Virus record (IMG/VR): IMGVR_UViG_3300029957_000007
Coordinates: 58,759-122,758 of that record
Strand: one strand, 5' to 3'
Source: a virus
Length of the DNA: 64,000 nt
Below, piece by piece: positions 3 to 16,013 of the stretch. Position 1 is the first letter of the stretch. Every line of letters starts with the position of its first letter. The translations under genes and the position numbers were made by a program. The notes under the pieces were generated by a model. That model searched no databases. It had not been told where the DNA came from and worked only from the letters and a program-made list of their open reading frames with translations.

Positions 3-1016
3 AATGGCAGCATTGCGTTGTACTACTACGCTTATGCTCAAGTGCTACAGCCTTCTGTTGAAACGGTGTTGGAGGTTCGAGGCGTTTCAGTTGGCAACAA
101 CCTGACACTGGTCTACAACTACAGTCAGAAGAACATGCGGATCTATTACAACGGCAAGCCAGGCGGTGCTGCTGTTTACATCGATTCGCCGTTGTTGAAT
201 ACGTCTACTTGGAACATCGTGCAGATCAATCACAACGAGAACGGCGTTGGGATCAGCATCAACGGAAGCCTCTACGCTACCAACTCAACAGTTTGGCAAA
301 CTGGAACTGTGAGCCAAGTGAACATCGGTGGTTCAGCTTCCTACTTCCCGATGACGTCAACCAACATCATCGACTCAGTGTTGTTCAGCAATGAGATCAA
401 TGAGGGTTACCCACCTACCCTTGCGACTCCGACGAACACACCAACAATCACAAAGACAAGTACACCAACAGCTACGAACACGTTCACGTTCAGCCCAACA
501 ACTACACCAACACCTACGATCAGCAATACGTTCACGATCTCACCGACGTTCTCTGCGACTTTGACGATCAGTCAAACGATCACGCCAACCAACACACCAA
601 CTGCGACACCGACGATCAGTCAGACAGCAACACCAACAGCGACGCCTTCTTCAACGCCAACAGCTACACCAACACAGATTCCGAGCTACAGCAGCCTTTC
701 GCTTGTGCAGGAATCTGCGATCTTGAACTTCCCAGGGACTGGGACGCAGTACAAGACGCACTTCTCACGTAACATCGTTCAAGTGATCAACGTGTACTTC
801 AGAGATACGACGGTGGCTGGCTATCCGAACATTGGTTCGGACTTGACAGTGGCTGGTCCAGTTGACTCGGTGGATGCATTCACCTACTCAACTCCACATC
901 AAGTCGTGTCATGGGATACCAACAAAAACATGATCTTCAGTTCGAGCGGTGGAAGCGTGATGAACTCATCACACACGTACATCGTCACATTGCAGTACTT
1001 GACTGATAACCGCTAG
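3..1016 (+). CDS. 5'-truncated LamG/concanavalin-like domain protein with Thr/Pro-rich linker (putative virion appendage or surface protein)
   Basis: Frame is open from the window edge. LamG-like strands (WNIVQINHN...ISINGSL...VNIGG...IIDSVLFS) followed by TPT/SPT repeats and a ~100 aa C-terminal domain. Same architecture as 20864-23776. Confidence 0.6.
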
Positions 1017-1025
1017 GAGGCTGAC

Positions 1026-1196
1026 ATGACACTCGTTCGCTATGGCGTCAACAAAAGCGTGAAGAAGCCTGATCTTGCGTCAGATCTTCCTAGCACTGCT
1101 AAGAAGCACGTTGCTGAGGTCAAGCAAGCTGAACTGAAAGGAGATAAGCATGGCAAAGCCGCTGAACGACCTGCTGGCGAGCTTCGCAGAGGCTGA
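1026..1196 (+). CDS. Small basic hypothetical protein (56 aa), absent from ORF track
   Basis: AGGAGG 5 nt before ATG 1026; translates MTLVRYGVNKSVKKPDL...GELRRG*; overlaps the start of the next gene. Confidence 0.5.
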   Translation: MTLVRYGVNKSVKKPDLASDLPSTAKKHVAEVKQAELKGDKHGKAAERPAGELRRG

Positions 1197-2922
1197 GCAA
1201 AAAGTCGCTGACATGGCTCCTTCGGTGAACATGCCTCAGAACGATTCGCTGCAGAACACGACTGGGATTGAGGATCATGACGATCAAGATCCCAATCACA
1301 AGATCGAAGAGTTCCGCGAGGATGCGCAGGACGAACCAACCAATCTTCGTCGTAACGACTTAGATGAAGAGATCAAGCTCCTCGAAGCAGCGATCAAGAA
1401 ACTCGCCGCGTACGTCCTGCAGACGAACGACCCGGACGCATTCATGATCTATAGGACAATCAAGCGATTGCTCACAGACATGAAGCTGAAAGAAAAAGCG
1501 GCAGCTGTTGATCTCGAGCAAGGTCGCTACGATCATGAATCACAAGAACGCTATGGCTCGAAGAAGTTTAAGCGAGTTGCTTTCTTCAAGCCTGGGACGA
1601 TGATCGACTTCAAGCACAACGATGAGATCTGGACTGGAACTGTCATTGGTAATGATGGCGTCATGTTGTTGGTTGATCATCCGCCGACAGATGCCGCTGG
1701 GCCAATGAAGGTCGATCCGTACTCAGTTGTCGATCATGGTGAAGAGGATGACGAAGCAGAAGAGGTTCTTGAGTACAACAAGAGGCAGGAACTTTTGGAT
1801 TGGCCTGACCGCGATCATTTGTACGTTGGGTCTCGTCACTTCAATGCTGAAGAACTGTCTGACCTCAATGGCGAAGCTCAAACAGATAAGACGAAGGCTC
1901 CACAGCCAGTTGATATGCGAGCCAACTCACAGCATACACCAACTGATTCGAATCCAAAGGCTTCAATCGGCATGAAGCGAAAAGCTGACATCACAGACAT
2001 GCAAGGACAAGACATCGATGTTCATGACGTTGTTGAGTGGGAAGGAAAACAAGTTGAAGTTGTTGATGTGATGGACAGTGGGAACATCATGATCTCATAC
2101 GACGACAAGCTTGTTGGTGTGCACCCTCAAGAGACAGTGAAAGTCGGCTTCTACAAGAAGTCAGAGAAATTCGTCAAAGCTTCATTGGCCAAGCGATTGG
2201 CCTATGATATTGGCGATGGTGCTGACATCAAAGATAAGGTAGATCAGTTCCGTAACAGCGAGAAGAACGGCTCAGTCAAGACGGCTGAAGAGACGTTCAA
2301 GCACGGTGAAGTCGTCACCGTCGATGGTGAGAAATTCAAGGTCGTTCAGCAAGATCAAAACGGCGATCTCGATCTCATGGCCATTGATGACGACACAGAC
2401 GTCATTACCGTCAATCCAAGTGAAGTCATCAGATCAGCATCAAAGAGGATTGCAATGAAGCGAACTGCGAACGACAAGCTGATGAAGCATGTCGACTTTG
2501 ACGACATTTCCTGCGGTGTGGAATGGCCGAAGGATACAATGCGTCAATACAGCGATGGCTTCAAACAGCACATGAAATGCGATTATGGCTACGTTCGCAA
2601 TTCGCTTGGCGATGATGGCGAAGATCTTGATTGCTACATCGGCGATCCGCAAACGCAGAAAGTACATCGCATCGATCAGTTGGTTCCAGAAACTGGAGAA
2701 CATGACGAGTACAAGTACATGCTTGGATTCCCAGACACCAAAGCTGCTGTCGGCATGTATCTGCAACACATGCCGCTCGAGCATTTTGGTGGGTGTGATG
2801 AACTGAGCATGGATCAATTCAGACACATCGCTCGAACTGGTGATGAGGAACTGCAACAGTACCAAGAACCAGTGAAGGAAGGCGCTGAAGACATTTCCCA
2901 CATGGAAGGCGAAGGAGCTTAG
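1150..2922 (+). CDS. Acidic multidomain protein with SH3/Tudor-like modules and C-terminal inorganic pyrophosphatase-like (InPase) domain
   Basis: DYGYVRNSLGDDGEDLDCYIG...DEYKYMLGF matches the InPase-type motif of phage/plasmid polyvalent proteins. Domains are separated by KRxA linkers. Confidence 0.7.
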   Translation: MAKPLNDLLASFAEAEQKVADMAPSVNMPQNDSLQNTTGIEDHDDQDPNHKIEEFREDAQDEPTNLRRNDLDEEIKLLEAAIKKLAAYVLQTNDPDAFMIYRTIKRLLTDMKLKEKAAAVDLEQGRYDHESQERYGSKKFKRVAFFKPGTMIDFKHNDEIWTGTVIGNDGVMLLVDHPPTDAAGPMKVDPYSVVDHGEEDDEAEEVLEYNKRQELLDWPDRDHLYVGSRHFNAEELSDLNGEAQTDKTKAPQPVDMRANSQHTPTDSNPKASIGMKRKADITDMQGQDIDVHDVVEWEGKQVEVVDVMDSGNIMISYDDKLVGVHPQETVKVGFYKKSEKFVKASLAKRLAYDIGDGADIKDKVDQFRNSEKNGSVKTAEETFKHGEVVTVDGEKFKVVQQDQNGDLDLMAIDDDTDVITVNPSEVIRSASKRIAMKRTANDKLMKHVDFDDISCGVEWPKDTMRQYSDGFKQHMKCDYGYVRNSLGDDGEDLDCYIGDPQTQKVHRIDQLVPETGEHDEYKYMLGFPDTKAAVGMYLQHMPLEHFGGCDELSMDQFRHIARTGDEELQQYQEPVKEGAEDISHMEGEGA

Positions 2923-2923
2923 C

Positions 2924-3895
2924 ATGAAGCGCATTGAAGGTGAAGGTGGTGAAGGACAGAGTTCTCAATCTGTTCCTTATTCTTCTGAACATTGGAAAGA
3001 GCTGAAGGATCGTGGTCTCACTACCTCCACACCTTCGCCTTCGATGCGTCAAACTGACTACAAGCAAGTGAATGCAGGGGATAAGTTCACCAGCTTAATT
3101 GCTGGTGAACTTACCGTTGCTTCAGTCACTGGTGAGATCACACACGTCGCTGACAAGAAAGGTCAGACGTTCATGGTCTCTACGGCGAGATTGAAAGAGC
3201 TCAAAGCCAAGCGTAGAAGCGTGAGCTTTAATATCGGTGTGAATCACGGTATGGTCATGATCTCATCTGAAGACGATCGTGACTCAGACCTGTGGAGATC
3301 AATGTGCGAGATATTCAAACGCAATGGCTACACACCTGACAGCGGCTATACGATGTTCCAGAAGCTTGACACGAACATTGAAGACGAAACTGCAAAGCTG
3401 ATCGCTGAGTTCGAGAAGGAAGGATACAAAGTTCATCAGGATTCTAGCGGTGGATTGAACAGCACTTTCTACATCTACTTCGATTCTGAAGATGCTGAGA
3501 GAGCCGCATCAAAAAGGAAGATCGTTGCAGTAATGAAAGAAAAGACGAAGACGCTGGTCTTCGATTTCGATGGCACTATCACATCGGAAAATACCTTCCC
3601 TGAGATCGCCGATCCTAATGAAGAGATCGTTGCGTACATGGAAGAAGCGAAACAGCTTGGGTTTGAGATCATCATCCATAGCTGCCGAACATCGTCTGAG
3701 CTGAATGATCAGAGCACTGCTGCTGAGCAACTCAAAGCGATGACTGACTACCTTGCACTGCACGATATTCCTTATGATGAGATCTGCACATCAGACAAGC
3801 CATTGGCCGTTGCTTACATCGACGACAAAGGCTGCAATGTGCTGGATGCGCAACGTCTTCGAAGCATCATTCATACTTCAAAGAGGATTCGATGA
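2924..3895 (+). CDS. Multidomain protein with C-terminal HAD-superfamily phosphatase
   Basis: HAD motif I LVFDFDGTI, motif II IIIHSCR, motif III/IV KPLAVAYIDDK; preceded by linker AASKRKIVA. Confidence 0.75.
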   Translation: MKRIEGEGGEGQSSQSVPYSSEHWKELKDRGLTTSTPSPSMRQTDYKQVNAGDKFTSLIAGELTVASVTGEITHVADKKGQTFMVSTARLKELKAKRRSVSFNIGVNHGMVMISSEDDRDSDLWRSMCEIFKRNGYTPDSGYTMFQKLDTNIEDETAKLIAEFEKEGYKVHQDSSGGLNSTFYIYFDSEDAERAASKRKIVAVMKEKTKTLVFDFDGTITSENTFPEIADPNEEIVAYMEEAKQLGFEIIIHSCRTSSELNDQSTAAEQLKAMTDYLALHDIPYDEICTSDKPLAVAYIDDKGCNVLDAQRLRSIIHTSKRIR

Positions 3896-6642
3896 GCAAG
3901 ATCAAGACAACGGCTGATGCCGACAACTTCGATTTGACTGAAGGGATTTTGAACGACGCTCAAGTTGCTGCTTATGGCGAGCATGCGCCGAACAAGATCG
4001 ATCAGCCGAATGATTTTGCTTCGCCAGGAGAAAAAGCTCCTGATGGTTTCACAGCCTCAAGACGAGCTGCTGTGCGAACAAATGCCCCAGAAGAATTCAA
4101 CAATGAAGATGAGCTGATCGACTACTTCACTGATGTCAATCGCACTGGCGATGCGTACATGGTGAGAGCGATCATTGATGGTGCCACCACCTACGTCAAG
4201 TACCAGCGGGATGGCAACGTCATCAAGCGTCAAGCCTCAAAGCGAACTGCTGAGTCCTATCGTGTCACGGTGGAAACTGAGAGCGGCACCGAAGAGAAGA
4301 TCCGTATCCTCGATGCTACTTCAGAGGATGATGCGAAAGAAAAAGCAATGAAGCAATACAACAACTTAAAAGGTGTCATTAGCGTTGAGAAGGTAGCTTT
4401 TAAACGCACTGCTTCAGGCGACTACGAAGTTGGTGACATCTACACCGATGTCAATGGCAACAAGTATACGATCAAGTCTTCAACAGAGGAATCGTCAGTT
4501 GCAGATGAGTATGATGAAGCCTTCTTCAAGGTGGAAGTCAACCAAGCTGTTTTTTATGATGGTCCAAAAGTTGTTGACATGGAGATGAGTGAATCAGCGT
4601 TGGACGATCTTGGCTTGGTTCGAGTCGGTTCAAAGCGCACTGCTTCACGATACAAGGACTGGAATGGCAGAGAATTTGATGTGCTCAATGGCATCGAAGA
4701 TGACGACACAGTCACCGTCAAGTACGTTGATGACGGCAGTGAATCGAATGTCGATGCAAGGTCTCTCGCCAATTCGGTCAAAAAAGGAGACGTCGTGAAA
4801 GTCGCTTCAAAGCGCAAGGCTTCAATCGATAATGACGATGAGAGACAGAAATATCTTGCCTACATCAAGCATAACTTAGTCAGCTCACCGCCAAATGAGA
4901 TCAAGAATGATCTGCGCAAAGATGGCCTCTCAGAAGAAGAGATTAGCGGTCTCTTTGAAGAACTGAGAAACACTGTGACTGGTGCCAAAGGCATTCGTGT
5001 TGGCAAGCTTAAGCGCAAGGCGTCTTTTCAAGTTGGCGATCTTGTGAAGAACAAGATCGGTGAAGAAGGAAAAGTTGTTGAAGGTGATGAAGGCGATGGA
5101 ATGGTTGGTGTTGATTTTGGTGGGCCAATTGAGCTTATCGAAGTCACCGACCTACAGGCGTGGAATCCTTCAGGAACCGAGAACGACGTTGACAGCTTCA
5201 CGGAGAAGGGTACTTACGGTGTCAAGAGCAAGAACGCTCCAGATCCTGAGGACGCTGCTCACTCAACTGATGTGGACTACATCGCTTCAAAGAGAACCGC
5301 TTCAATGTCTGTTGGTGATAAAATCACTGATGGTAATGGAGAAACGTTCATTATCACCGGCTTTGCAGATAATGGTCGTGTGCTGGGTACGATTGATGGA
5401 GAAGAAACAGAATTTACTGAGAAAGAGCTTTATAACAAAGTTCAGAATGGTGAAGCCACTCGAGTTACTGGTTCAAAGCGAACCGCTGCTAAGATCGAAT
5501 GGAACAGTCAAACAATTTGGGCAACTCAAAACCCAGATGATGGCTCATATGAATTCGAATTTGGTGGTAAGGAGTTTTATCTGGAAGGTGACCAAGTCTA
5601 CAGGGCTATAGATGGTTCACCAATTGGCACTGGTAAAGTGATAGAAGCTTCAAAGCGAACAGCTTCATTCAAAGGTCAGCAAGTTGTTGTTGATGCTGAA
5701 GGTTTCAACTACGTCGAAGGTCTTGTTGCTGATGAAGGCACCATTGAAGAGTTGATGCAACGCAACGATGCAGCTGCTGCTCAAGGCGATTCGCTGATCG
5801 ATGATGGTATGGGCTTCGGTGCCGACACGCAAGCAGTGATCATCAACACGGAAGAAGGTGACGTGCTTGTGCCTTCAGAATTTGTGAGACAGCAAGTTGA
5901 ATCTGGCACAGTGGTCGGCCGTCTGTTCAAGAAAGCTGATGAACAACCACAAATTGGCGATACTCTTGTCGATGCTGAAGGTCGCAAAGCTCGTGTTATT
6001 GCATTTGGAGATGATGGGTCAGTGGAAGTTGAAGGGCCAGATGGCGAAACATATCACACTTGGCCAGATGGAGTGAAGATCATTAAACATAAAAATGTTG
6101 TTGATGCATCAACAAAACGCACCGCCAAAGGTTTCGGCATTGGTGACAAAGTGGAATGCGAGCAAGGCTTCGGTGTCGTGAAGGATATCGACTTCGATGG
6201 CGATGGCAATTCAATCTACACCATCTCGCTTGAAGGCGGCGGTGAAGATGATTACCAAGAAGGAATGCTTTCAAAAGCTGCTTTAAAACGTCTTGCTTCA
6301 GATGAATACGATTTTGAAGTCGGTGATCGATTCAGAGACAAAAACGATCTTGAATGGATTGTGATCGAGTCAACTGATAGCAACGATCCAAACGCTGACA
6401 ATCGCATCGGATTGATGGAGCCACTCACTGGCACGAAGATTTATCCTGATGCTGACAGCCTCGAAGCGAAGATCTCTTCTGGTGAGATGGTCAGAACATC
6501 AGCCAAACGTACAGCTGATGAAGCTCATGAAAAAGAAGAGATGGGTGAGGAACAACGCATCAAGAAAGATCTGGAAGAGATCGATGAGATCATCGATCAC
6601 ATGTTCGATGCTGACTCTAAGCAAGTGAAAGGAGTTGAGTGA
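3892..6642 (+). CDS. 916-aa acidic tandem array of small beta-barrel (SH3/KOW/Tudor-like) domains separated by SKRTAS-type linkers; putative internal head protein
   Basis: 12 [KR]RxA linkers plus one variant, spaced 54-93 aa. Many units begin F/Y-x-VGD-x-V/I. Lies in the head gene cluster. Confidence 0.6.
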   Translation: MSKIKTTADADNFDLTEGILNDAQVAAYGEHAPNKIDQPNDFASPGEKAPDGFTASRRAAVRTNAPEEFNNEDELIDYFTDVNRTGDAYMVRAIIDGATTYVKYQRDGNVIKRQASKRTAESYRVTVETESGTEEKIRILDATSEDDAKEKAMKQYNNLKGVISVEKVAFKRTASGDYEVGDIYTDVNGNKYTIKSSTEESSVADEYDEAFFKVEVNQAVFYDGPKVVDMEMSESALDDLGLVRVGSKRTASRYKDWNGREFDVLNGIEDDDTVTVKYVDDGSESNVDARSLANSVKKGDVVKVASKRKASIDNDDERQKYLAYIKHNLVSSPPNEIKNDLRKDGLSEEEISGLFEELRNTVTGAKGIRVGKLKRKASFQVGDLVKNKIGEEGKVVEGDEGDGMVGVDFGGPIELIEVTDLQAWNPSGTENDVDSFTEKGTYGVKSKNAPDPEDAAHSTDVDYIASKRTASMSVGDKITDGNGETFIITGFADNGRVLGTIDGEETEFTEKELYNKVQNGEATRVTGSKRTAAKIEWNSQTIWATQNPDDGSYEFEFGGKEFYLEGDQVYRAIDGSPIGTGKVIEASKRTASFKGQQVVVDAEGFNYVEGLVADEGTIEELMQRNDAAAAQGDSLIDDGMGFGADTQAVIINTEEGDVLVPSEFVRQQVESGTVVGRLFKKADEQPQIGDTLVDAEGRKARVIAFGDDGSVEVEGPDGETYHTWPDGVKIIKHKNVVDASTKRTAKGFGIGDKVECEQGFGVVKDIDFDGDGNSIYTISLEGGGEDDYQEGMLSKAALKRLASDEYDFEVGDRFRDKNDLEWIVIESTDSNDPNADNRIGLMEPLTGTKIYPDADSLEAKISSGEMVRTSAKRTADEAHEKEEMGEEQRIKKDLEEIDEIIDHMFDADSKQVKGVE

Positions 6643-7019
6643 TGAGCTTCACACCATTGAACGTGAAGATCGATGCGACGGTGGTCGTCACACAGGCTAA
6701 CCCATTGAATCCAGCTGTTTCAAAGCCAGTGTACCAAGGTGTTGATTTCTCTGGGTTTGCTGATGCTCAAGCATCAAATGCAGATAACCAAGGGAATCTC
6801 AATATTCCGGCTAACACATCTGCGAATGTTCCACTTCCGGCAGGTACTACGAACTCCAAGTTCCTGTTCTATCGCTTCAACAACCCAGTGAATCTGTCTG
6901 GACTTGTGAGTGCGCAGAACACGAGATACGGGATTTTGGAGATCACATCGGCTGTTGCACTGACTGTTGCCGCAGGAATCAACGACACACAAGGCTTCGT
7001 GATGATCTTAGGAGCCTAA
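6642..7019 (+). CDS. Hypothetical beta-rich (likely virion structural) protein
   Basis: TGATG overlap with upstream gene, GGAG RBS, small-residue beta-rich composition. Confidence 0.45.
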   Translation: MSFTPLNVKIDATVVVTQANPLNPAVSKPVYQGVDFSGFADAQASNADNQGNLNIPANTSANVPLPAGTTNSKFLFYRFNNPVNLSGLVSAQNTRYGILEITSAVALTVAAGINDTQGFVMILGA

Positions 7020-7709
7020 ATGAAAGTTCAGACAAAGAAAGCTTTTATGACGATCATCCTCGCTTTGGTGCTCATGAATCTCACAACAGTATGCGTTATA
7101 CTTGTTGTGCTTGATCGGAACACCAAAGCGCTGGAAGATGCAAAGGCTGAAGAAGTACTTGCACGAATTGGGGACAATAGGATGTTAAGGGCACGGAGTA
7201 ACTTTGAACTGCCGGGCTTTACACCTACCCACCTCGAACGTGTCACGAGGAACGCTGACACGATGGGAATACCGTGGTGGGTACCAGCCGGTATTGCAAA
7301 GCACGAAAATGGAGGTGACACGCTCGAGGTTGGGATGCAAATCATCCCAATGAACATCCGCATGAACACTCCAGTAATGGAGTGGCAGTACGTTGCACTC
7401 ATGCGAATGCTCAACCAACAGGCGTGGAGAGTGATACTCTCTGACCCTGAACTTCTGCCGAAGGTCCTCATACCTTTCGCTCAGAACTACAAATCGTCTG
7501 ACCCTCAACTGTGGCTGAAGCAAACCAACAATGCAATGATCGACTTCAGAAGCAGAGAGGAGATCTCGAAAGTAGCACATGACACGGTGGTGTCTGATCC
7601 ACCTTCACCTTCGAAGTTGAAGAAAAAGAAACCTTCGACTAAGAAGTTTCACAGGAAGTTTAGGATCAACCCTAAACTCAAACGAACACAAGGAGAAAAC
7701 AAACAATGA
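7020..7709 (+). CDS. N-terminally membrane-anchored protein, possible lytic transglycosylase-like domain
   Basis: Hydrophobic helix at aa ~8-31; GIAKHENGG...GMQII loosely resembles SLT motifs I (catalytic Glu) and II (GLMQ); basic C-terminal tail. Confidence 0.35.
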   Translation: MKVQTKKAFMTIILALVLMNLTTVCVILVVLDRNTKALEDAKAEEVLARIGDNRMLRARSNFELPGFTPTHLERVTRNADTMGIPWWVPAGIAKHENGGDTLEVGMQIIPMNIRMNTPVMEWQYVALMRMLNQQAWRVILSDPELLPKVLIPFAQNYKSSDPQLWLKQTNNAMIDFRSREEISKVAHDTVVSDPPSPSKLKKKKPSTKKFHRKFRINPKLKRTQGENKQ

Positions 7710-8263
7710 AGAAGATTCTGCTGGCTTTGCTGATCGCCGCTACCACAACCTTCGCTACCACCTCGTTGAAGGCCGATCAGGCCGTGACGACTGCCGCTGC
7801 CGTGGCTCCTGCCTCGGATCAGGTGCAGTTGGACGGCGCCAAGTTCGTCGATGGCAATTGGTTCCAGATCGCTGGGTTCACCGGCGATGTGTCGAACTAC
7901 GGTGGCCCTGGTGACAGCACCATCACCGACCTGAAGAAGCAGCTGGACGACTATGCTGCTGCCAAGGCCAAGGCCGAGGGTGACGACAGCGACATCGCGA
8001 GCCGTGAGGATTGCGAGAAGTTGGCTGTTCGCTCAGCTGTTCGTGGCCAGTACGCCCTGGAAGTCGGTCGACTGTACGCCAAGGCTGGTGACACCGTCAA
8101 GGCGAAGGCTGCTTGGCTGCGAGCCTTGGCCTGGGGCAAGACCGCAGTGAAGGCGACCTACGACACCGACAACGATGTGGAGAACGGCAAGATCGCTGAT
8201 AACCAGAAGACCGGCGAGTTCGTGGTGAACACCGCCAAGCGTTGGTTGAAGAAGATCAAGTAA
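7706..8263 (+). CDS. Secreted protein with Sec signal peptide, helical/TPR-like C-terminal part
   Basis: MKKILLALLIAATTTFATTSLKA signal peptide; strong AAGGAG RBS; GC3-rich codons like the capsid gene. Confidence 0.6.
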   Translation: MKKILLALLIAATTTFATTSLKADQAVTTAAAVAPASDQVQLDGAKFVDGNWFQIAGFTGDVSNYGGPGDSTITDLKKQLDDYAAAKAKAEGDDSDIASREDCEKLAVRSAVRGQYALEVGRLYAKAGDTVKAKAAWLRALAWGKTAVKATYDTDNDVENGKIADNQKTGEFVVNTAKRWLKKIK

Positions 8264-8275
8264 AAGGGACCTAAA

Positions 8276-8338
8276 AGTCACCTCAGGGATCCATCTCGTA
8301 CCCCACAGGTTGGTCCCTGAGGCACCATTTAAGTGACT
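8276..8338 (+). promoter_or_regulatory. Nested intergenic stem-loop upstream of the head morphogenesis genes
   Basis: CCTCAGGGA 8281-8289 pairs with TCCCTGAGG 8314-8322; AGTCAC 8276-8281 pairs with GTGACT 8333-8338. Confidence 0.5.
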
Positions 8339-8371
8339 GTGCATAATCAAACGGACTGACCGAGGAGCATC

Positions 8372-8710
8372 ATGCCTGACATAGCGATCACATGTGATGG
8401 TGAAGAGGTAAACATCACTCGACTTGATAAAGCATTCGGCTTCAATACTCTCACTGATCTCGTGGAACATGCTTCTGGTGAGGAACTAAGCTACACTCCA
8501 GAACTTTACGAGAACGGTGAAAGGCTCACCATCAAATGCTTCACATTGGAAGATGCTCAAAGGTTAACGAAGCGAATCCAGTCGGAAGTGCCGAACCACA
8601 TCATTGGAAGTGCTGTTGAAAAGACAGAGATCAAGAAAGAGGATGCCAATCCTCCGGATGACGATGAAGGTCCGAAGGAAGAGCTTCCAAAGGACGAGAT
8701 CCAGTCCTAA
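8372..8710 (+). CDS. Small acidic hypothetical protein
   Basis: GAGGAG RBS, 112 aa ORF directly upstream of the protease gene. Confidence 0.65.
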   Translation: MPDIAITCDGEEVNITRLDKAFGFNTLTDLVEHASGEELSYTPELYENGERLTIKCFTLEDAQRLTKRIQSEVPNHIIGSAVEKTEIKKEDANPPDDDEGPKEELPKDEIQS

Positions 8711-8724
8711 ACACGGAGGAAGGC

Positions 8725-11601
8725 GTGTTACTGAGATATGCGAAAGCCAAGATAACACGAATCGCCTCGTGGGATGAGATCTTTATCAGAGACAGAAAGG
8801 TCAGAACAGCTTCCATCCTGGAAGACAAAGCACTTGATCGTACCATTCAGATCAAGCCAATCGCATTGAACCCACAGAAGTATTTGTATGTTCAAGCGAG
8901 AGCAGTGAGTGGCGGTGAAGTACATGGTCCAAACGACAACGGCGACTACTTTCGTTGGGAGGAGCTGCAAGAACGGTACATGACGTTCATTGGAGCTGCT
9001 GTCAACATCGACCACAAGAACAACGCACCAGAATGGGCTTGTGGTATCATCATCGACGCACAACTCAATCCTGAACAATGGGTTGAGATCGTCATGGCTA
9101 TCGATAAAGCAAAAGCAGAGAAGTTGTACCCTGGAGTCATCAAGAAAATTGAGGCTGGAGCTATCACAGACGTCTCAATGGGCTGCTTGGTAGAATGGTC
9201 GATCTGCTCAACTTGCTTGAGAACGAAGGCCGATGGCGATGAATCGAAGCTTGTGCAGGGTCAAGGGCTTGCAATGGAGCCTGAAGATTATTGCGAGCAT
9301 GTCGATGAAGATTCGCCTGCATTCTGTAAAGGAATGCCTGATCCGGATGGAGAGATCTGCCATGAAGATAATCGTGGCGTGACCTTCTTTGAAGAGAGCA
9401 TCATCACAACTCAAGGCGCAGATCCAGACGCCAAACTCGGACAACGCTTTGCGTCTGTCAAGATCAACGAAAAAATTCGAATCGCTTCATTCGCTCCACC
9501 TCAGCACACACCTTCAGACAAGTCGGCATTAGCGCCGTACATCAACTTTCGGTCACTCGACAATGTGCGACTTGCACATTTGAAACGGATCTCAAAAGGA
9601 GAAGATAGCATGGGTGCTGAGAAGAAGCCAGTGGTTGCTGCTGGTCCGGGGAATCCAACGGATACAGAGCAGGACAGAGGCGATTACGGCAAAGCCAGCG
9701 AGAAGGACAAGGCTCTCTTCGATCAAAGCAAGCAGAAGAGCCAGAAGGAAGACGAGAAGCGAGGCAATGAGGTGGAGACCATGATCGACCGTGGCGACTA
9801 CACACTCGCTGCTTTGGCTGCAGTGCAAGTCCTTCGCAAAGCTGGTAAGGCCGATCCAAAGCTGATCGCTTCCCTGCTGCCACTCATCGCCTCGGAAGAG
9901 GAAGTTGAGAAGCCAGGCGAGAAGAAGGCTGATGAGGTCGACATGCACAAGGACAAGGCGAAGCCCGGTGAGGAAGAGGGCGTCGAGGAAGTCCCTGAGA
10001 AAAAGGAAGTCGGTGAGAAGCCAGGCATGGTTGAGAAGGGCGAAGAGGAATATGTCGAGCCAACAGCTGCCACTGCTGCTAAGAAAGATGTGAAGCTGAG
10101 CGGCAAGGATTCCAAGTTCGCTCAGGCCAAGGCTGTTTTGGCTGATGCAATGAGCAAAATTGGTGCCATCCTTGGCAATCCTTTAGAGACCGCAAAGGAT
10201 GCTGGCGATTACGATGCTGGCGATGTGAACAAAGAGACCAAGTCAGTGGCTGACAGCAATGCTGGTGCCACTGAGAAAGAGAAGAAGGCGCAAGATGCCG
10301 CTGGCAATTCGACCAAAGAGGATCGTGAGAAACAGGTCGAGCTGGCCAAGCGTGCTGCTGCCAAACAGCGCAAAGCTGATAACGAAGACAAGAAAGTGGA
10401 CTTCATCACGAGTGAGATGATGAAGGGCAAGAACTTCGACGACTCCAAGCAAGAAGCTGATGAGCGCTATAAAGAAGACGAGACTCGTCAAGCCGCTGCT
10501 GAGCCAGAGATGAAGGACGGCACAGACAAGACGCAGAAGTCACCAGCCACTGAAGACAAGGCTGAAGGCGAGAACAAGATGCAAGACAAAGAATTGGATC
10601 AAGAGAAAGCTGGTTCCTCAGTCGAGAAGCCTGAAGTCGAGCGAGAGATCGCTGCTGGCAAGAAGGTGAAAGCTGAGAGCACCGAAGAGGAAATGCAAAA
10701 AGGCACTGAAGAGACCAAGGACAGCAAGAAGGAAGCCGCTGCTGAAGAGGCTCCCGAGTCGAAGGAAGAGAAAGAGGTCGAAGGCGCCAAGGAAGAGAAA
10801 TCCGAGAAGCCAGAGGAAGTGGTTGGGAAGCTCGACACCGCTGCTGCCGCCTTTGAGGACGAGGAGAAGAAGCTGAAGGAAGAGGCCGCAAACCTCGCCT
10901 CCCTCGGCCTGAAGGAAGAGGCGAAGCTGATCGTCAAGCGGATCTCTTCACTTCAAGAGAAAGTCGCTGTGCTGAACAGCCTGGCGAACAAGATCGAGGA
11001 CAACGGCAAGCGCGTTGCTTCGGTTGCGAACATTGCTCAGCGGAAGAAAGCGCTGGGTCAGTTCTCCATCATGGTCAAGAAGGCCTCGGTGATCCTGGCT
11101 GAGGTCTGCAAGGGCGATGATGAGGAGAAGAAGACGGTCGAGTCTTCGATGCAGAAGTCGGCTTCGGCCAAGCGGCTTGCTTCAGAGAATGCTCAACTGA
11201 AGGCCTCCCAATTGAAGCAGCAAGCGGCTATCCAGCGCATTGCTCGCTCTCAAGCGGTCTCCAGCCTGATCAAGATGGCGAAGGAGAAGGGGCTGATCGA
11301 CGAGACACAGGTTGCGAGCACCATCGAACGCTGGTCTAAACTCTCGGATCCTGCTTTTGCCGAGATCAAGGCCCACTTCGCTGCTGCAAAGCCTGTTCGA
11401 GTGGCTGGTGTGCAGGGTCTGCGCAAGAATCTCCGTGAGGCTGCTGCGGGCTTGACCCGTGTCGCCAATGGAGAACTTGAAGGCGTGGAAGCTCCTGTGG
11501 CTGGCTTGATGAAGCAATCGGACCTTGACGAACAGCTGGCGGACATGTTCATGGACGATGCTCGTGCCATGGGCAGCAAAGGACCCCGCGGAAGCTTCTA
11601 A
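8725..11601 (+). CDS. Prohead (capsid maturation) protease fused to scaffolding protein
   Basis: N-terminal protease domain (YLYVQARAVS, NIDHKN His, DVSMGC Ser, CSTC/CEH Zn-like site, FFEESI...ADPDA); long Glu/Lys/Ala-rich coiled-coil scaffold; upstream of decoration and capsid genes. Confidence 0.85.
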   Translation: MLLRYAKAKITRIASWDEIFIRDRKVRTASILEDKALDRTIQIKPIALNPQKYLYVQARAVSGGEVHGPNDNGDYFRWEELQERYMTFIGAAVNIDHKNNAPEWACGIIIDAQLNPEQWVEIVMAIDKAKAEKLYPGVIKKIEAGAITDVSMGCLVEWSICSTCLRTKADGDESKLVQGQGLAMEPEDYCEHVDEDSPAFCKGMPDPDGEICHEDNRGVTFFEESIITTQGADPDAKLGQRFASVKINEKIRIASFAPPQHTPSDKSALAPYINFRSLDNVRLAHLKRISKGEDSMGAEKKPVVAAGPGNPTDTEQDRGDYGKASEKDKALFDQSKQKSQKEDEKRGNEVETMIDRGDYTLAALAAVQVLRKAGKADPKLIASLLPLIASEEEVEKPGEKKADEVDMHKDKAKPGEEEGVEEVPEKKEVGEKPGMVEKGEEEYVEPTAATAAKKDVKLSGKDSKFAQAKAVLADAMSKIGAILGNPLETAKDAGDYDAGDVNKETKSVADSNAGATEKEKKAQDAAGNSTKEDREKQVELAKRAAAKQRKADNEDKKVDFITSEMMKGKNFDDSKQEADERYKEDETRQAAAEPEMKDGTDKTQKSPATEDKAEGENKMQDKELDQEKAGSSVEKPEVEREIAAGKKVKAESTEEEMQKGTEETKDSKKEAAAEEAPESKEEKEVEGAKEEKSEKPEEVVGKLDTAAAAFEDEEKKLKEEAANLASLGLKEEAKLIVKRISSLQEKVAVLNSLANKIEDNGKRVASVANIAQRKKALGQFSIMVKKASVILAEVCKGDDEEKKTVESSMQKSASAKRLASENAQLKASQLKQQAAIQRIARSQAVSSLIKMAKEKGLIDETQVASTIERWSKLSDPAFAEIKAHFAAAKPVRVAGVQGLRKNLREAAAGLTRVANGELEGVEAPVAGLMKQSDLDEQLADMFMDDARAMGSKGPRGSF

Positions 11602-11652
11602 CATTAGTGAGCGAAGCTCATTAGTGTCCTTGAGCTGGATGATCTAGCTCAA
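11602..11652 (+). promoter_or_regulatory. Two intergenic hairpins before the decoration/capsid genes
   Basis: TGAGC-GAA-GCTCA flanked by a CATTAGTG direct repeat; TTGAGCTGGA-TGA-TCTAGCTCAA (10 bp, one G.U pair). Confidence 0.5.
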
Positions 11653-11672
11653 ATGCAATGGAGGAAAGAACA

Positions 11673-12143
11673 ATGGGTATGCAGGTCCTGCAACTCAGCT
11701 TCAAGGATGGCAACATCCCGTTGGATCCCACCGTGGCTGCGAACGGCTACTTCGGTGGTCAGCCCGCTGCCATCAATTCGCTCGGTCAGGCCACGAAGGC
11801 TACCAGCGGTGGTGGTTCACCGGCTTACATCGGCATGTTCAAGAACTCACAGTACGAGGACGCTCAGAACGGCAACGTGACGATCGTCTTCGGCGCTAGC
11901 AAGGTGCAGTTCATGAACGGTTCGGACCAGGTGGAGAACACTGACCTGTCAGGCAATGTGATCGAAGGCGCTCCGTATGATACCACTCAGACGTACGCCA
12001 ACGCTCAGTACCTGTACATCGATCACGTGTCCGGCCTGTGGACCAACCAGAGCGCTGGCAACGGCACTGCGAAGGGCATCATCACCAAGGCCCCGACGTC
12101 GACAGACTCGACGCTGGAAGCCTACATGTTCGCCGTCGCCTAA
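11673..12143 (+). CDS. Capsid decoration/cement protein
   Basis: Between protease and MCP; GGAGG RBS favours ATG 11673; strong codon bias; G/A/T-rich beta composition. Confidence 0.65.
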   Translation: MGMQVLQLSFKDGNIPLDPTVAANGYFGGQPAAINSLGQATKATSGGGSPAYIGMFKNSQYEDAQNGNVTIVFGASKVQFMNGSDQVENTDLSGNVIEGAPYDTTQTYANAQYLYIDHVSGLWTNQSAGNGTAKGIITKAPTSTDSTLEAYMFAVA

Positions 12144-12185
12144 GCCAACTCAACCGACATAACTGTCACCGGAGGAATCACAACA

Positions 12186-13154
12186 ATGGATCCGAGAATG
12201 TCACGTGCCATGCAGGCTTTCGCTTCGGCTTACAACGGCGACCCTGCTACTGCCGGCAAGCACCCCGGCCAGGTGAGCTCTGAGAAGCGTGAGGCTGCCA
12301 AGCGCATGCATCTTCGTCGTGAGGCTGCTCTCACCCAGGCTCTGCAAACCGAGGCTGGTCTGAAGCGCATCGCCGCGAACATGTCGAACCCTGTCCGCTT
12401 CAAGTTGGACTACAAAGGGATCTTCCGCAAGTTCGTCATTGTGGAACAGATGCCCGATGGCGTCCCGCTGATCTGGGACAAGGATCAGCCGCTGGCTCCT
12501 GCCGTGAAGGTCGGCAAGGGCGGTTCACCTCGCATGATCGAGATGCGAGGCAAGCGTGTGGAGCTCCAGGCCTTTGAGATCGCCAGCCGTGTGAAGGTTC
12601 CTTACGAGGAGCTGTTCACTCGCCGGTACAGGGCCCTGGATCGTGCCAAGGATCGTCTGATCGAAGGCATGGAGCTGCGTGAGGATCTGATCGGCTTCTC
12701 GCTGATCGAGACCGCGAGCTCCCTGGTTAACACCCCGGTGGTGACGGCCGGTGCTTTCGACCGTGATCTGCTGGCCAAGATGTTCGTGCAAGTGGAAGCC
12801 AATCGCTTGCCTGTTGCGACGGTTCTGATGTCGCCATACGGCACGATGGGCATCCGTCGTCTGCAGTTCCAGAACCTGGACCAGGTCGGCATGCAGGAAG
12901 TCCGGGAGACCGGGTACCTCGGCAACATGTGGGGTGCTGACTTCTACGTGTCAGATCAGATCCCGGCTGGTACGGCTTACGCCTTCACCGGTCCAAAGTT
13001 CTTCGGCTGGATGCCGATCCGCAAAGACACCGACGTCATCCCTGCTGATGACCCGGACAATCTGCGCCTCGGCTTCGTCGGCTATGAGCTCCTGGCCATG
13101 ACGATCTTCAACGCCCTGGGCGTGGTGAAGGGCAGCTTCAACATCGCTGCCTAA
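12186..13154 (+). CDS. Major capsid protein (HK97-like fold)
   Basis: Position after protease/decoration genes; strongest codon bias in the window; KRIAANMSNPVRFKLDYKGIFRK..VEQMPDG motif recalls capsids of Bxz1-like myoviruses (from memory, unverified). Confidence 0.85.
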   Translation: MDPRMSRAMQAFASAYNGDPATAGKHPGQVSSEKREAAKRMHLRREAALTQALQTEAGLKRIAANMSNPVRFKLDYKGIFRKFVIVEQMPDGVPLIWDKDQPLAPAVKVGKGGSPRMIEMRGKRVELQAFEIASRVKVPYEELFTRRYRALDRAKDRLIEGMELREDLIGFSLIETASSLVNTPVVTAGAFDRDLLAKMFVQVEANRLPVATVLMSPYGTMGIRRLQFQNLDQVGMQEVRETGYLGNMWGADFYVSDQIPAGTAYAFTGPKFFGWMPIRKDTDVIPADDPDNLRLGFVGYELLAMTIFNALGVVKGSFNIAA

Positions 13155-13180
13155 GATCGACTGACGCAATGTGGAAGGAG

Positions 13181-13206
13181 GAGGAGGAGCTATCAGCCTC
13201 CTCCTC
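13181..13206 (+). terminator. Hairpin after MCP (attenuator or 3' stabiliser)
   Basis: GAGGAGGAGCT-ATC-AGC(C)TCCTCCTC, 11 bp with one bulge; no clear U-tract. Confidence 0.45.
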
Positions 13207-13243
13207 TAACCATTATCCTCTGACTCAAACAAAAGGAACTACC

Positions 13244-13696
13244 ATGTCGAATGCTAAAGTCGTGACACGTGAGATGATCGAGAACATCCGCTTCGTTCAG
13301 AACACGTTGAACGCTCAGCTGATGATCCCTGACCTGGGCAAGAACGGCATCGTTCTGACGCCTTACGAGATCGTGGACTTCTCTCGCTTCTTCTCCAAGC
13401 GTGAGCTCGGTCAGTCATCGCACTTGGATTACTGCCTGAAGGAAGGGCATCTGAAAGTGCTGGAGACTCCTGCCAATGTTGCCGAGGCAACTGGCGAGAA
13501 TCTCAAGTTCAAGGACGCTGTGCAGGAAGAGGACAAAGAGAAGCTGCGTGGTGAAGAGCTCCCGAAGGACACGCCGGTCACTGATCGTGTTGAGACCAAG
13601 TTCGATGAGGGTCTGGACAAGGTTGAGGACAAGGAAGACCAGGAAGACGAAGAGACCAAGCTCAGCAAGAAGCGTCGCAAAGCCAGCCAGGAATAG
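13244..13696 (+). CDS. Hypothetical head-associated protein
   Basis: AAGGA RBS favours ATG 13244 over 13169; strong codon bias; ends KKRRKASQE. Confidence 0.65.
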   Translation: MSNAKVVTREMIENIRFVQNTLNAQLMIPDLGKNGIVLTPYEIVDFSRFFSKRELGQSSHLDYCLKEGHLKVLETPANVAEATGENLKFKDAVQEEDKEKLRGEELPKDTPVTDRVETKFDEGLDKVEDKEDQEDEETKLSKKRRKASQE

Positions 13697-13817: not shown

Positions 13818-16013
13818 ATGAAGAGAACAGCGCTGCTCATTGGCTTGCTGATGTGCACCATCAGCGCATGGGCCAATCCATCAACACCAACGGGACTTGC
13901 CGTTGTGACAAACACAGCGACAAGTGCTAATCTGACTTGGAATTCAGTCAGCGGCATTGGTATCAAGTACAACATCTATCAGAATGGAACATTACTCGGA
14001 AACAATGGCGGCACAAATGCTCAAGTGTCTGGCCTTGTAACTGGCGTGAGTTATGGATTCGGCGTTCAAGCTTTTGACATCAACAACCTCGCATCAGCGG
14101 TTTCGCCATATGTGACGATCACTGCTGGATCTGGTGTCACGCCAACTGGTCAAGTACAGAATGTCTATTGCGTGAATTGTTCCTCTGGGTCAGGTGGCGG
14201 AGGTGGTTCCGTCACACAGGGGACTTCACCATGGGTTACGAGCGGAACAATTACAGGATCTATTCCAACTGGTAACAATACAATAGGTGCCGTTGGTGTG
14301 ACAAGTATGCCAACTATTTCAATTAATCCGGCCAATGTCTACATCACTGGCACGGTGAATGCTAATGTCACCTCTTCTACTGCGCAACAGATTACGATTA
14401 CTGCTTCGAGTATCACGTTACCAGTTAGTGTGACGGCGGCATTACCAGCTGGAACAAACTACATTGGTGCAATAAATATTAGCAATACATCAGCAATTAG
14501 CATTAGCGCCACCGGCGGGGCATTTGGAGTGAACAACTTCCCAACCTCACTGACAAACGGCGATTGGGTCTCAGGTGATACGCCAGAAGCTCAACTTGCA
14601 TCAGTGGAAGCCTACTTGAAGATGTCGAACACGGCTGGTACTGCTGACAACGTAATGGGTGACACCACCAATGGTCTGTGGGTTAATCTGAAGAATGCAG
14701 TCGCTTTGACTGTGAATACCCATGCCGTTACGCAGTCTGGAGCATGGGCTGCATTCGTCACACCAAGCGTTGGTACGTCCAGTGGTTCTCCTGCTTTCAT
14801 CTCCGTGACAGGTCAGGTTCCAGTGACTTGCTCTAATTGTACTAGCGGAAGCAGTGGAGCTTCTTCTGGGCTGAGTCTGGGAGCGCAGACTACAACTGCC
14901 GTTGTCGGATGGTTTGGCGGCATCACGAGTTCGGTATCCGTAAATACACATGCAGTGACTCAAAGCGGAGCATGGGCTGCATTCGTCACACCAAGCGTTG
15001 GTGTTGTGGCTGCAACTCCAGTATTTGTTTCCATACCAGCGGGAACTTACCTGACAGCCAATCCGGTGGGAGGTGCATTCCTTGGTTCTGTTTCCTTCGT
15101 TGCAGGTGCGATTGGAACTTCTTCTGGCAATCCACAATATGTCAATCAAGCTGGACTCACTTACTACAACAGTGTGAGTAACAATAGTTCTGTTCAACTT
15201 GCTTCATCTGCTACATTCACTGGAGCTATCGAAGGAGCTTTTAACCAACCAGCTGCACAGGTTATGGTCTTCGGCGACCAACCCATGACCATCTATTGTG
15301 ACCAGTTTAACGCCCTAAACAACGTTGTGGAAACAGATACTTTTACTTATGTGACATTCACTACTGGCATCGCAAGTCAGGGATTCAATCGTAACATTAT
15401 GATTACTGGAGACGCCTTTAGGGTGCGGTGTCAGAATACGGGGGCAGGCACCACTACTACATTTAATTTAGAAACCACTTACGGTACCTTACCACCAGAA
15501 CCCAACGCCATCACGAGTTTAGGTAATAAAAAGATTGCTTTGATGGAATTAGGAGGCCTTCTCCTGAACGCTGCTGGAATTCCTATTTCAGGAACGGTCA
15601 ATTCAAATCTGTACGTCGCAGGTGCTGCCAATAATGCAACTAACGGCGCGTTCTTCAGCAACCTTGGCAACTACTCTACCGGGCGATACGTCACCACAGC
15701 CGCTGGGGCTACGAATGCAACTTCCATTAAAGCCAGCAGTGGCATGATTACTGGATTGTGGGCCAGCAACACCAATGGCAGTACACAATATATTAAACTT
15801 TATGACGTGTCATACACGCCACAAGTCGGTGTTACTGTACCGATGCTAACCATAGGCGTCCCAGCAAATGGTGGTTTTCTCAATCCAGTTGGAGCATCTG
15901 CCTGTCTGACATTTACATCTGGGATTGCAACCGCTACTACAGCTAACAGTGGTGATACAGACGCAACGAGCATTGCTGCTTCAACATTGAAATTTATCAT
16001 TAACTGGAAATAG
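13818..16013 (+). CDS. Signal-peptide protein with N-terminal fibronectin type III domain and long low-complexity beta-rich body
   Basis: GGGAG RBS and ATG 13818; MKRTALLIGLLMCTISAWA signal; FN3 pattern PSTPTGL...LTWN...YNIY...GLVTGVSYGFGVQAFD; C-terminal IKASSG...YIKLYD...TFTSGIA domain. Confidence 0.7.
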   Translation: MKRTALLIGLLMCTISAWANPSTPTGLAVVTNTATSANLTWNSVSGIGIKYNIYQNGTLLGNNGGTNAQVSGLVTGVSYGFGVQAFDINNLASAVSPYVTITAGSGVTPTGQVQNVYCVNCSSGSGGGGGSVTQGTSPWVTSGTITGSIPTGNNTIGAVGVTSMPTISINPANVYITGTVNANVTSSTAQQITITASSITLPVSVTAALPAGTNYIGAINISNTSAISISATGGAFGVNNFPTSLTNGDWVSGDTPEAQLASVEAYLKMSNTAGTADNVMGDTTNGLWVNLKNAVALTVNTHAVTQSGAWAAFVTPSVGTSSGSPAFISVTGQVPVTCSNCTSGSSGASSGLSLGAQTTTAVVGWFGGITSSVSVNTHAVTQSGAWAAFVTPSVGVVAATPVFVSIPAGTYLTANPVGGAFLGSVSFVAGAIGTSSGNPQYVNQAGLTYYNSVSNNSSVQLASSATFTGAIEGAFNQPAAQVMVFGDQPMTIYCDQFNALNNVVETDTFTYVTFTTGIASQGFNRNIMITGDAFRVRCQNTGAGTTTTFNLETTYGTLPPEPNAITSLGNKKIALMELGGLLLNAAGIPISGTVNSNLYVAGAANNATNGAFFSNLGNYSTGRYVTTAAGATNATSIKASSGMITGLWASNTNGSTQYIKLYDVSYTPQVGVTVPMLTIGVPANGGFLNPVGASACLTFTSGIATATTANSGDTDATSIAASTLKFIINWK
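14739..15002 (+). repeat. 36-nt exact direct repeat (14739-14774 and 14967-15002) within a 21-aa peptide duplication
   Basis: GGAGCATGGGCTGCATTCGTCACACCAAGCGTTGGT occurs twice; peptide VNTHAVTQSGAWAAFVTPSVG occurs twice. Confidence 0.9.

Follow-up and report, generated by a model that had tools for sequence, protein, structure and literature searches.

Motif-directed proteolysis of phage heads, protease-scaffold fusions and polyvalent cargo proteins are all already known. The prohead protease gp21 of phage T4 cuts in the register L/I-x-E| (the bar marks the cut), and herpesvirus assemblin cuts (V/L/I)-x-A|S at its release and maturation sites (UL26/UL80). Cleavage of the herpesvirus assemblin-scaffold precursor was reportedly treated by Welch et al. 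in 1991, and motif-directed head proteolysis of the phiKZ type is said to have been described by Thomas et al. in 2012. The head proteases of phiKZ and SPN3US follow the register S/A/G-x-E| (PMC10052503). Polyvalent proteins, the group in which the InPase domain was defined, are phage proteins of several domains for which packaging and injection are predicted, and their processing is ascribed mostly to a metallopeptidase (MPTase) acting in cis (Iyer et al. 2017; PMC5512222). Here we describe the head-assembly locus of an uncultured phage, a distant relative of Bacillus phage G, in the final 64 kb (64,000 nucleotides, hereafter the window) of the 122,758-bp IMG/VR record IMGVR_UViG_3300029957_000007, which is estimated to be ~76% complete. 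Proteins of this locus share a K-R-x-A-(S) signal, and we put at roughly 0.65 the probability that a prohead protease of the gp21/assemblin type cuts after Ala in K-R-x-A|S, releasing itself, trimming the capsid protein and cutting cargo polyproteins, including those that bear InPase and HAD domains.

The enrichment of the signal was measured against 2000 within-protein shuffles. Among the 11 proteins of the head locus (4097 amino acids, aa), [KR]RxA occurs 25 times, against 2.3 occurrences expected and a maximum of 9 in any of the shuffles. The remainder of the window holds 6 sites (5.4 expected) and the record's 157 genes outside the two head blocks hold 14 (12.6 expected), and only head genes show the enrichment. 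A mild excess (7 versus 2.1 expected) is seen in the terminase-portal block, which lies outside the window, with the sites in proteins of 225, 296 and 399 aa; the 399-aa gene ends just 5' of the portal gene, and the 225-aa gene is at genome position 29002. Similarly, RxAS occurs 17 times in the head locus (0.9 expected) and never in the remainder of the window (3.0 expected), and Ser directly follows Ala in 11 of the 25 [KR]RxA sites. In an unbiased scan of all 8000 "ab-x-c" patterns, KRxA ranks first (22 versus 1.5 expected, P = 1.5e-18, Poisson), and it still ranks first when the 916-aa protein is left out (10 versus 1.25, P = 8e-7). KRxA is present in at least six unrelated proteins, and the codons at the sites vary, with six Arg, three Thr and four Ala codons in use, which indicates selection at the protein level rather than a DNA repeat.

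The initial annotation of this DNA, made from the letters alone, had listed 12 copies of the motif in the 916-aa protein, five in the InPase protein (KRVA, KRKA, KRLA, KRIA and KRTA), three in the first 63 aa of the capsid protein (KREA, RREA and KRIA), TRIAS, VRTAS, IRIAS, KRVAS and KRLAS around the protease and in the scaffold, and RRKAS at the end of the post-capsid protein. All of these are there, together with one RRAA in the 916-aa protein and a QRFAS in the protease-scaffold protein that had not been listed, whereas the proposed variant "KRKIVA" of the HAD protein is not a motif match. The annotation had also noted the absence of the motif from sheath, tube and baseplate proteins; this holds by position only, as a PHROGs search named no sheath, tube or baseplate protein. 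The sole KRTA downstream of the head locus (13818) belongs to the signal peptide of a 731-aa protein. As a separate observation, the most enriched pattern outside the head blocks is PTxT (46 versus 8.9 expected), which marks Pro/Thr-rich linkers and is clearly exemplified by the first open reading frame (ORF) of the window (18-1016).

The N-terminal 240 residues of the 958-aa protein encoded 5' of the capsid gene are predicted to be a prohead serine protease of the T4 gp21/herpesvirus assemblin fold (MEROPS clan SH). An AlphaFold2 (AF2) model of residues 1-270, built on 12 sequences, has a mean predicted local distance difference test score (pLDDT) of 69.5; both ends are disordered, with pLDDT below 50 for aa 1-45, and the fold stops at aa 241. 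In VIA-align, the best structural match of the model is T4 gp21 (5jbl; Z 9.8, root-mean-square deviation 3.1, 131 aa), followed by herpesvirus assemblins (~35 PDB entries, Z 6.9-9.2), and unrelated beta-barrel proteins reach Z 6.8 at most. Moreover, the top 50 Foldseek matches of the core in the PDB are exclusively assemblins or T4 gp21. The candidate catalytic residues H97 (in NIDH) and S151 (in DVSMG) are invariant across the 12 aligned sequences and lie 54 aa apart, a spacing that presumably resembles that of H85 and S140 in T4 gp21. In a related IMG/VR phage (L017:1104-6002), the protease-scaffold gene encodes 1632 aa, with an insert right after DVSMG that starts like a Hint/intein domain (...DVSMGVMCFPGETGILLSDG...); judged from its sequence, it resembles an intein-type element inserted at the catalytic Ser.

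The signal surrounds the protease fold of the 958-aa protein (Table 1). All eight full-length homologs (49-84% identity) have the post-fold site, in the form [RK]-[LF]-A-[SAH], and the N-terminal R-x-A-S sites are kept in the four closest of them. Phage G gp19, which is 36% identical to the 958-aa protein, has K-V-A-S and K-I-A-S at the equivalent post-fold place. The C-terminal 700 aa are low-complexity, charged and scaffold-like, and the two sites within this region are partly conserved in homologs, as SRIA/SRFA and [RK]-x-A-A. This layout is what a self-releasing protease-scaffold precursor might look like, with the sites at aa 240-255 as a candidate for self-release.

A logo of 47 sites shows that conservation is one-sided. 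All the positions at P7-P5 (A/T/G, S/A/G, S/L/M; 1.0-1.6 bits) and P2 (K/T; 1.9 bits), which the search pattern leaves free, are informative, and the Ala is invariant, whereas P1'-P5' carry only 0.2-0.8 bits; the residue after Ala varies (S in 13, A in 8 and D in 8 of the 47 sites). A protease site that ends at P1 is expected to show just such conservation, halting at a small residue, and we infer that the scissile bond would follow the Ala.

The 916-aa protein, an acidic polyprotein like beads on a string, begins with a ~56-aa leader and then has 13 [KR]RxA sites (12 KRxA and one RRAA) with the extended consensus V-x-[AGT]-S-K-R-T-A-S. The sites divide it into pieces of 41-154 aa, plus one of 5 aa between tandem sites, and the pieces are mostly acidic (net charge -1 to -16). 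Several of them resemble small beta-barrels that start with G-D-x-V; Pfam searches at E<=1 and the ESM Atlas gave sub-threshold SH3/Tudor/DUF1653-like hints only, and "SH3-like" is a guess. None of the hallmark polyvalent effector domains was recognized in the 916-aa protein in Pfam, including at E<=1. Five blocks that AF2 models better (aa 121-166, 312-359, 379-423, 476-524 and 531-584) each start within a few residues after a site. Tandem sites are found at aa 112-120 of this protein (K-R-Q-A-S-K-R-T-A) and at aa 427-440 of the 590-aa InPase protein (R-S-A-S-K-R-I-A-M-K-R-T-A), and relatives have the form x-[KR]-x-A-S-x-K-K-x-A; to judge from these sequences, double cuts there would free peptides of 5-6 residues.

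To what extent the signal outlasts the modules can be seen in relatives of the 916-aa protein. When 1.8 billion representatives were searched exhaustively without a profile, just four relatives (P0130-P0133) were found; all four are punctuated alike and share the ~56-aa leader and a few modules, P0130 covering 13% of the 916-aa query. Of the whole protein, the leader, which ends at the first site, is conserved best in P0130 and P0133; a search of the genome's other motif-bearing proteins for a leader like it found none. [KR][KR]xA sites number 11 in P0130 (1.4 expected; mainly G-S-K-R-T-A), 7 in P0131 (1.0 expected; KK[TK]A) and 9 in P0133 (0.64 expected; S-x-K-K-K-A), and a partial ORF 5' of the protease gene in IMG/VR contig L002 has ASL-K-[RK]-K-A between modules. 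P0130, P0131, P0133 and the L002 ORF share at most 13% of the modules. Their sequences thus indicate that modules are swapped among related polyproteins while the signal stays at the borders, with the lineage variants KRTA, KKKA and KK[TK]A. In IMG/VR, no relative of P0133 was found, and for P0131 only a widespread small module. This module (…PEGWE-TVKKMK…NPWALSWWMKNKGY…), present in P0131/P0132 and L002 (587-886), recurs in nine other IMG/VR phage contigs (L019-L027), one of them 360 kb long, and by its sequence is a widespread phage mini-domain.

Two enzyme-bearing proteins are encoded just upstream. The InPase domain of the 590-aa protein (aa 445-559, PF18823, E 2.2e-23) is preceded by four modules and by KRxA sites at aa 141, 276, 348, 432 and 437, of which the last two form the tandem KRIA-M-KRTA|N that stops 5 residues before the domain. 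In the 323-aa protein, the HAD module begins at ~aa 192 (phrog_1238, E 1.8e-19, aa 192-306; Pfam HAD matches are weak), and R-A-A-S at aa 193-196 marks its border, "KRKIVA" coming after it. Pfam (including E<=1) and PHROGs revealed no peptidase domain in the 590-, 323- and 916-aa proteins; without a peptidase in cis, any processing of these cargo proteins would be in trans.

The capsid protein offers a comparison with a known structure. Its family profile matches PDB 6wkk (phage G gp27; E 1e-74), and the protein itself is 36% identical to gp27 over aa 44-319, gp27 residue 8 aligning to residue 44. A ~43-aa N-terminal extension is not present in gp27. Among 120 capsid homologs, the N-terminus is variable (0-60 aa) up to a conserved [RK]-[KR]-E-A-A-L at the start of the conserved body, and x-K-I-A-A-N is conserved within the body. 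Because the extension ends at [RK][KR]EA|AL and is missing in gp27, KREA|A and RREA|A are good candidates for maturation cuts. KRIA|A aligns with the body of gp27, and a cut there may not occur. The 175-aa protein 3' of the capsid gene ends in KKRRKA|SQE, three residues from its C-terminus; it has no family match in profile searches, including Pfam at E<=1, and in this Lys-rich tail the motif may have arisen by chance. An ORF of 136-146 aa upstream of the window (G000:C1:46556-46762, locus L004) shares 35% identity with residues 193-260 of the capsid protein (E 8e-8) and, from this similarity, appears to be a stand-alone, fragment-like capsid-protein paralog among small early or middle genes.

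Taken together, the fused prohead protease would recognize basic residues at P4/P3 and Ala at P1, cutting [A/G/T]-S-K-R-x-A|S. In the procapsid, it would detach itself from the scaffold by cuts at aa 12, 27, 241 and 252, cut the scaffold at aa 763 and 817, and remove the N-terminal extension of the capsid protein. Cargo precursors that co-assemble would be cut at module borders, namely the InPase protein, the HAD protein and the 916-aa protein, the last of which would yield ~13 small acidic modules; the same would apply to the three motif-bearing proteins encoded close to terminase and portal outside the window. The released modules might be internal or injected proteins, or scaffold-like debris that is expelled or degraded. 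The initial annotation had proposed that the protease uses a basic R-x-A site, or that the motif is an encapsidation tag, and that long precursors are packaged and cut into small cargo domains. The fold, the sites that flank it, the site at the capsid border, the persistence of the signal in related polyproteins whose modules differ and the P-side logo speak for a protease site, but KRIA is perhaps uncut and relatives follow basic-(basic)-x-Ala rather than strict KR.

Several observations weigh against such processing. Pfam families S77, S78 and S21 do not match the protease even at E<=1; as only phrog_18299 matches, it forms a distinct sequence family within the gp21/assemblin fold. The AF2 model of the whole 916-aa protein is poor (pLDDT 41), so that module borders are read from sequence and from the few blocks modeled with confidence. 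The ~24% of the genome missing from the record could encode another protease. PDB 6wkk contains 280 of the 282 residues of gp27, and the region aligned with KRIA may therefore persist in the mature capsid. Finally, the region upstream of the capsid gene in more distant relatives (L007-L014) shows no strong enrichment of any such pattern. In unbiased pattern scans of ten related IMG/VR loci, a comparable signal was found only in L016 (KKxA, 13 versus 2.8; KxAA, 15 versus 3.5) and a weak one in L017 (KxAS, 7 versus 1.0), which makes dense punctuation a feature of a sub-clade. Similarly, the head region of phage G shows no KRxA enrichment and no polyprotein was seen in it; a 2025 paper on phage G gives no cleavage sites, and no paper on a phage protease site of the basic-x-Ala kind turned up in literature searches.

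Alternatively, the signal could be an uncut basic linker between modules, for example a tag for encapsidation or scaffold docking, or a patch that contacts DNA between acidic modules, with the long proteins whole in the virion. The basic motif and the acidic modules would agree with this, and N4 virion RNA polymerase (vRNAP) is a large packaged protein without processing (PMC5512222). However, a tag need not occur 13 times in one protein and is not expected around a protease fold or at the border of the capsid N-terminal extension, and an invariant small Ala at P1 with an abrupt loss of conservation after it fits a scissile bond better than a binding patch; we consider an uncut linker unlikely. 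The sites could also be cut by another enzyme, either a host or unseen phage dibasic protease that acts after K-R (kexin-, OmpT- or trypsin-like) or one encoded in the missing part of the genome. Although K-R is a classic dibasic site and the record is incomplete, searches of the 122.7-kb record found no trypsin-like, subtilisin-like or ClpP gene, an enzyme that needs only the dibasic pair would not require an invariant Ala two residues past it or the conserved P7-P5, and the sites flank the gp21-like protease itself. Another enzyme is thus quite improbable.

That the pattern is a by-product of module-plus-linker duplication or of composition, with no function of its own, is very improbable. 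Several modules do look like small beta-barrels with a G-D-x-V start, with sub-threshold SH3/Tudor hints, but modules and linkers are not recent tandem copies at the DNA level, the signal is kept while homologs swap modules, the shuffles never reach the observed count, and KRxA leads the scan even without the 916-aa protein and spreads, with varied codons, over unrelated proteins. A basophilic kinase site (R at -3 of Ser) for head-protein phosphorylation, which the Ser after Ala in part of the sites might suggest, is hardly credible given that the post-Ala residue varies in homologs while Ala is invariant and that no kinase was noted near the locus.

The features are listed in Table 1. All head-locus genes have the same orientation (+; 1150-13696), and the terminase, portal and MuF-like genes lie 20-30 kb upstream within the same record. 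Two small genes at 7020-8263 have an unusual position between the cargo genes and the protease gene. The 229-aa product of one has a membrane anchor at its N-terminus, and the 185-aa product of the other has a signal peptide of the lipoprotein or secretion type; neither has family matches or KRxA sites. A test for homology between the 161-aa protein and gp26, the decoration protein of phage G, was negative. The longest-ORF call at 13476, which overlaps the 175-aa gene, is an artifact of an upstream in-frame ATG. Further downstream, the 731-aa protein (13818-16013) has a signal peptide (MKRTALLIGLLMCTISAWA) and internal near-repeats (…NTHAVTQSGAWAAFVTPSVG…, two copies).

Table 1. Features of the head-assembly locus, with positions in the window
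Feature	Position	Strand	Match or remark
590-aa protein, C-terminal 115 aa = InPase	1150..2922	+	Pfam PF18823; phrog_4660 minor head protein
323-aa protein, C-terminal HAD-type phosphatase module	2924..3895	+	phrog_1238
916-aa acidic "beads on a string" polyprotein	3892..6642	+	no family match
Four small genes, two with membrane anchor or signal peptide	6639-8710		
958-aa prohead protease-scaffold fusion	8725..11601	+	phrog_18299 head maturation protease, E 9e-11
N-terminal candidate sites TRIA|S (aa 11-15), VRTA|S (aa 26-30)	8755..8814	+	disordered extension
Folded protease core, aa 46-241	8860..9447	+	AF2, core pLDDT 80-94
Post-fold candidate sites QRFA|S (aa 240-244), IRIA|S (aa 251-255)	9442..9489	+	C-terminal end of fold
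Scaffold-region candidate sites KRVA|S (aa 762-766), KRLA|S (aa 816-820)	11008..11184	+	
161-aa protein	11658-12143		between protease-scaffold and capsid genes
Major capsid protein, 322 aa, HK97-type	12186..13154	+	phrog_2522, E 2e-44
Capsid-protein N-terminal region with candidate sites KREA|A (aa 34-37), RREA|A (aa 44-47), KRIA|A (aa 60-63)	12186..12374	+	
175-aa acidic protein, 3' of capsid gene	13169..13696	+	

Beyond this locus, the prohead protease of a phage-G-like lineage and a basic-x-Ala "punctuation code" peculiar to that lineage might together form a general cargo-loading platform, a tentative and rather doubtful extension. Any small module placed between two KRxA signals behind a conserved ~56-aa leader would be packaged within a polyprotein and then released as separate internal or injected proteins, and relatives would swap cargo (acidic mini-domains, maybe DNA mimics or anti-defense proteins, InPase and HAD) while the code drifts together with the protease (KRTA, KKKA, KKTA). 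If cutting at the signal by the prohead protease is true, a simple sequence rule would predict the mature virion proteome and the cargo for a clade of uncultured phages (>120 capsid homologs in metagenomes), and an explicit, portable cut signal could help to load foreign proteins into phage capsids.

The system predicted here resembles T4 gp21 and phiKZ gp175/SPN3US gp245 in its fold, in the P3-x-P1 register and in having several sites per substrate, and it is also alike in the use of one short motif across the capsid protein, the scaffold, the protease and many internal or ejection proteins. It differs in that P1 is Glu and P3/P4 are hydrophobic or small in T4 and phiKZ, whereas P1 is Ala and P3/P4 are basic here, in a single substrate with 13 sites predicted to yield ~60-aa modules, and in the fusion of the protease to the scaffold. 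The initial annotation was right to set the motif apart from the Glu-ending T4 and phiKZ motifs, for its invariant last residue is Ala; the closer analog is the Ala|Ser of herpesvirus assemblin. The herpesvirus precursor is similar in its N-terminal protease fused to a scaffold, in a site right after the fold, a candidate one here, and in the predicted Ala-Ser scissile pair; the folds are alike (Z 7-9.2) but sequence identity is ~11%, and P3/P4 are hydrophobic in the herpesvirus system and Arg/Lys in this phage, which also has many extra substrates, including cargo polyproteins. If true, this would be a third specificity class of the gp21/assemblin fold, intermediate between the Glu rule of phages and the Ala|Ser rule of herpesviruses, and it would bear on the shared ancestry of tailed-phage and herpesvirus capsid assembly.

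With the polyvalent proteins of phages and conjugative elements, the cargo proteins share multiple modules, a place among virion genes, the InPase domain and rapid module shuffling, as well as the prediction of packaging, maybe of injection, and of processing into units. In contrast to them, the cargo proteins here have no cis peptidase (MPTase); their predicted processing would occur in trans, the prohead protease cutting at a signal that is explicit and repeated, and most of their modules are tiny, acidic and without a known family. If true, a prohead protease in trans, and not a cis metallopeptidase, could split polyvalent-type proteins into many cargo proteins. The nearest cultured relatives are gp19 and gp27 of Bacillus phage G, at 36% identity each; K-x-A-[AS] flanks the gp19 fold as well, but the phage G protease is stand-alone (300 aa) and its capsid protein has no N-terminal extension. 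Compared with all these systems, what is new is the predicted specificity for basic P4/P3 and Ala P1 of this fold in a phage, and its predicted role as punctuation in a polyprotein of 13 sites and in precursors that bear enzymes.

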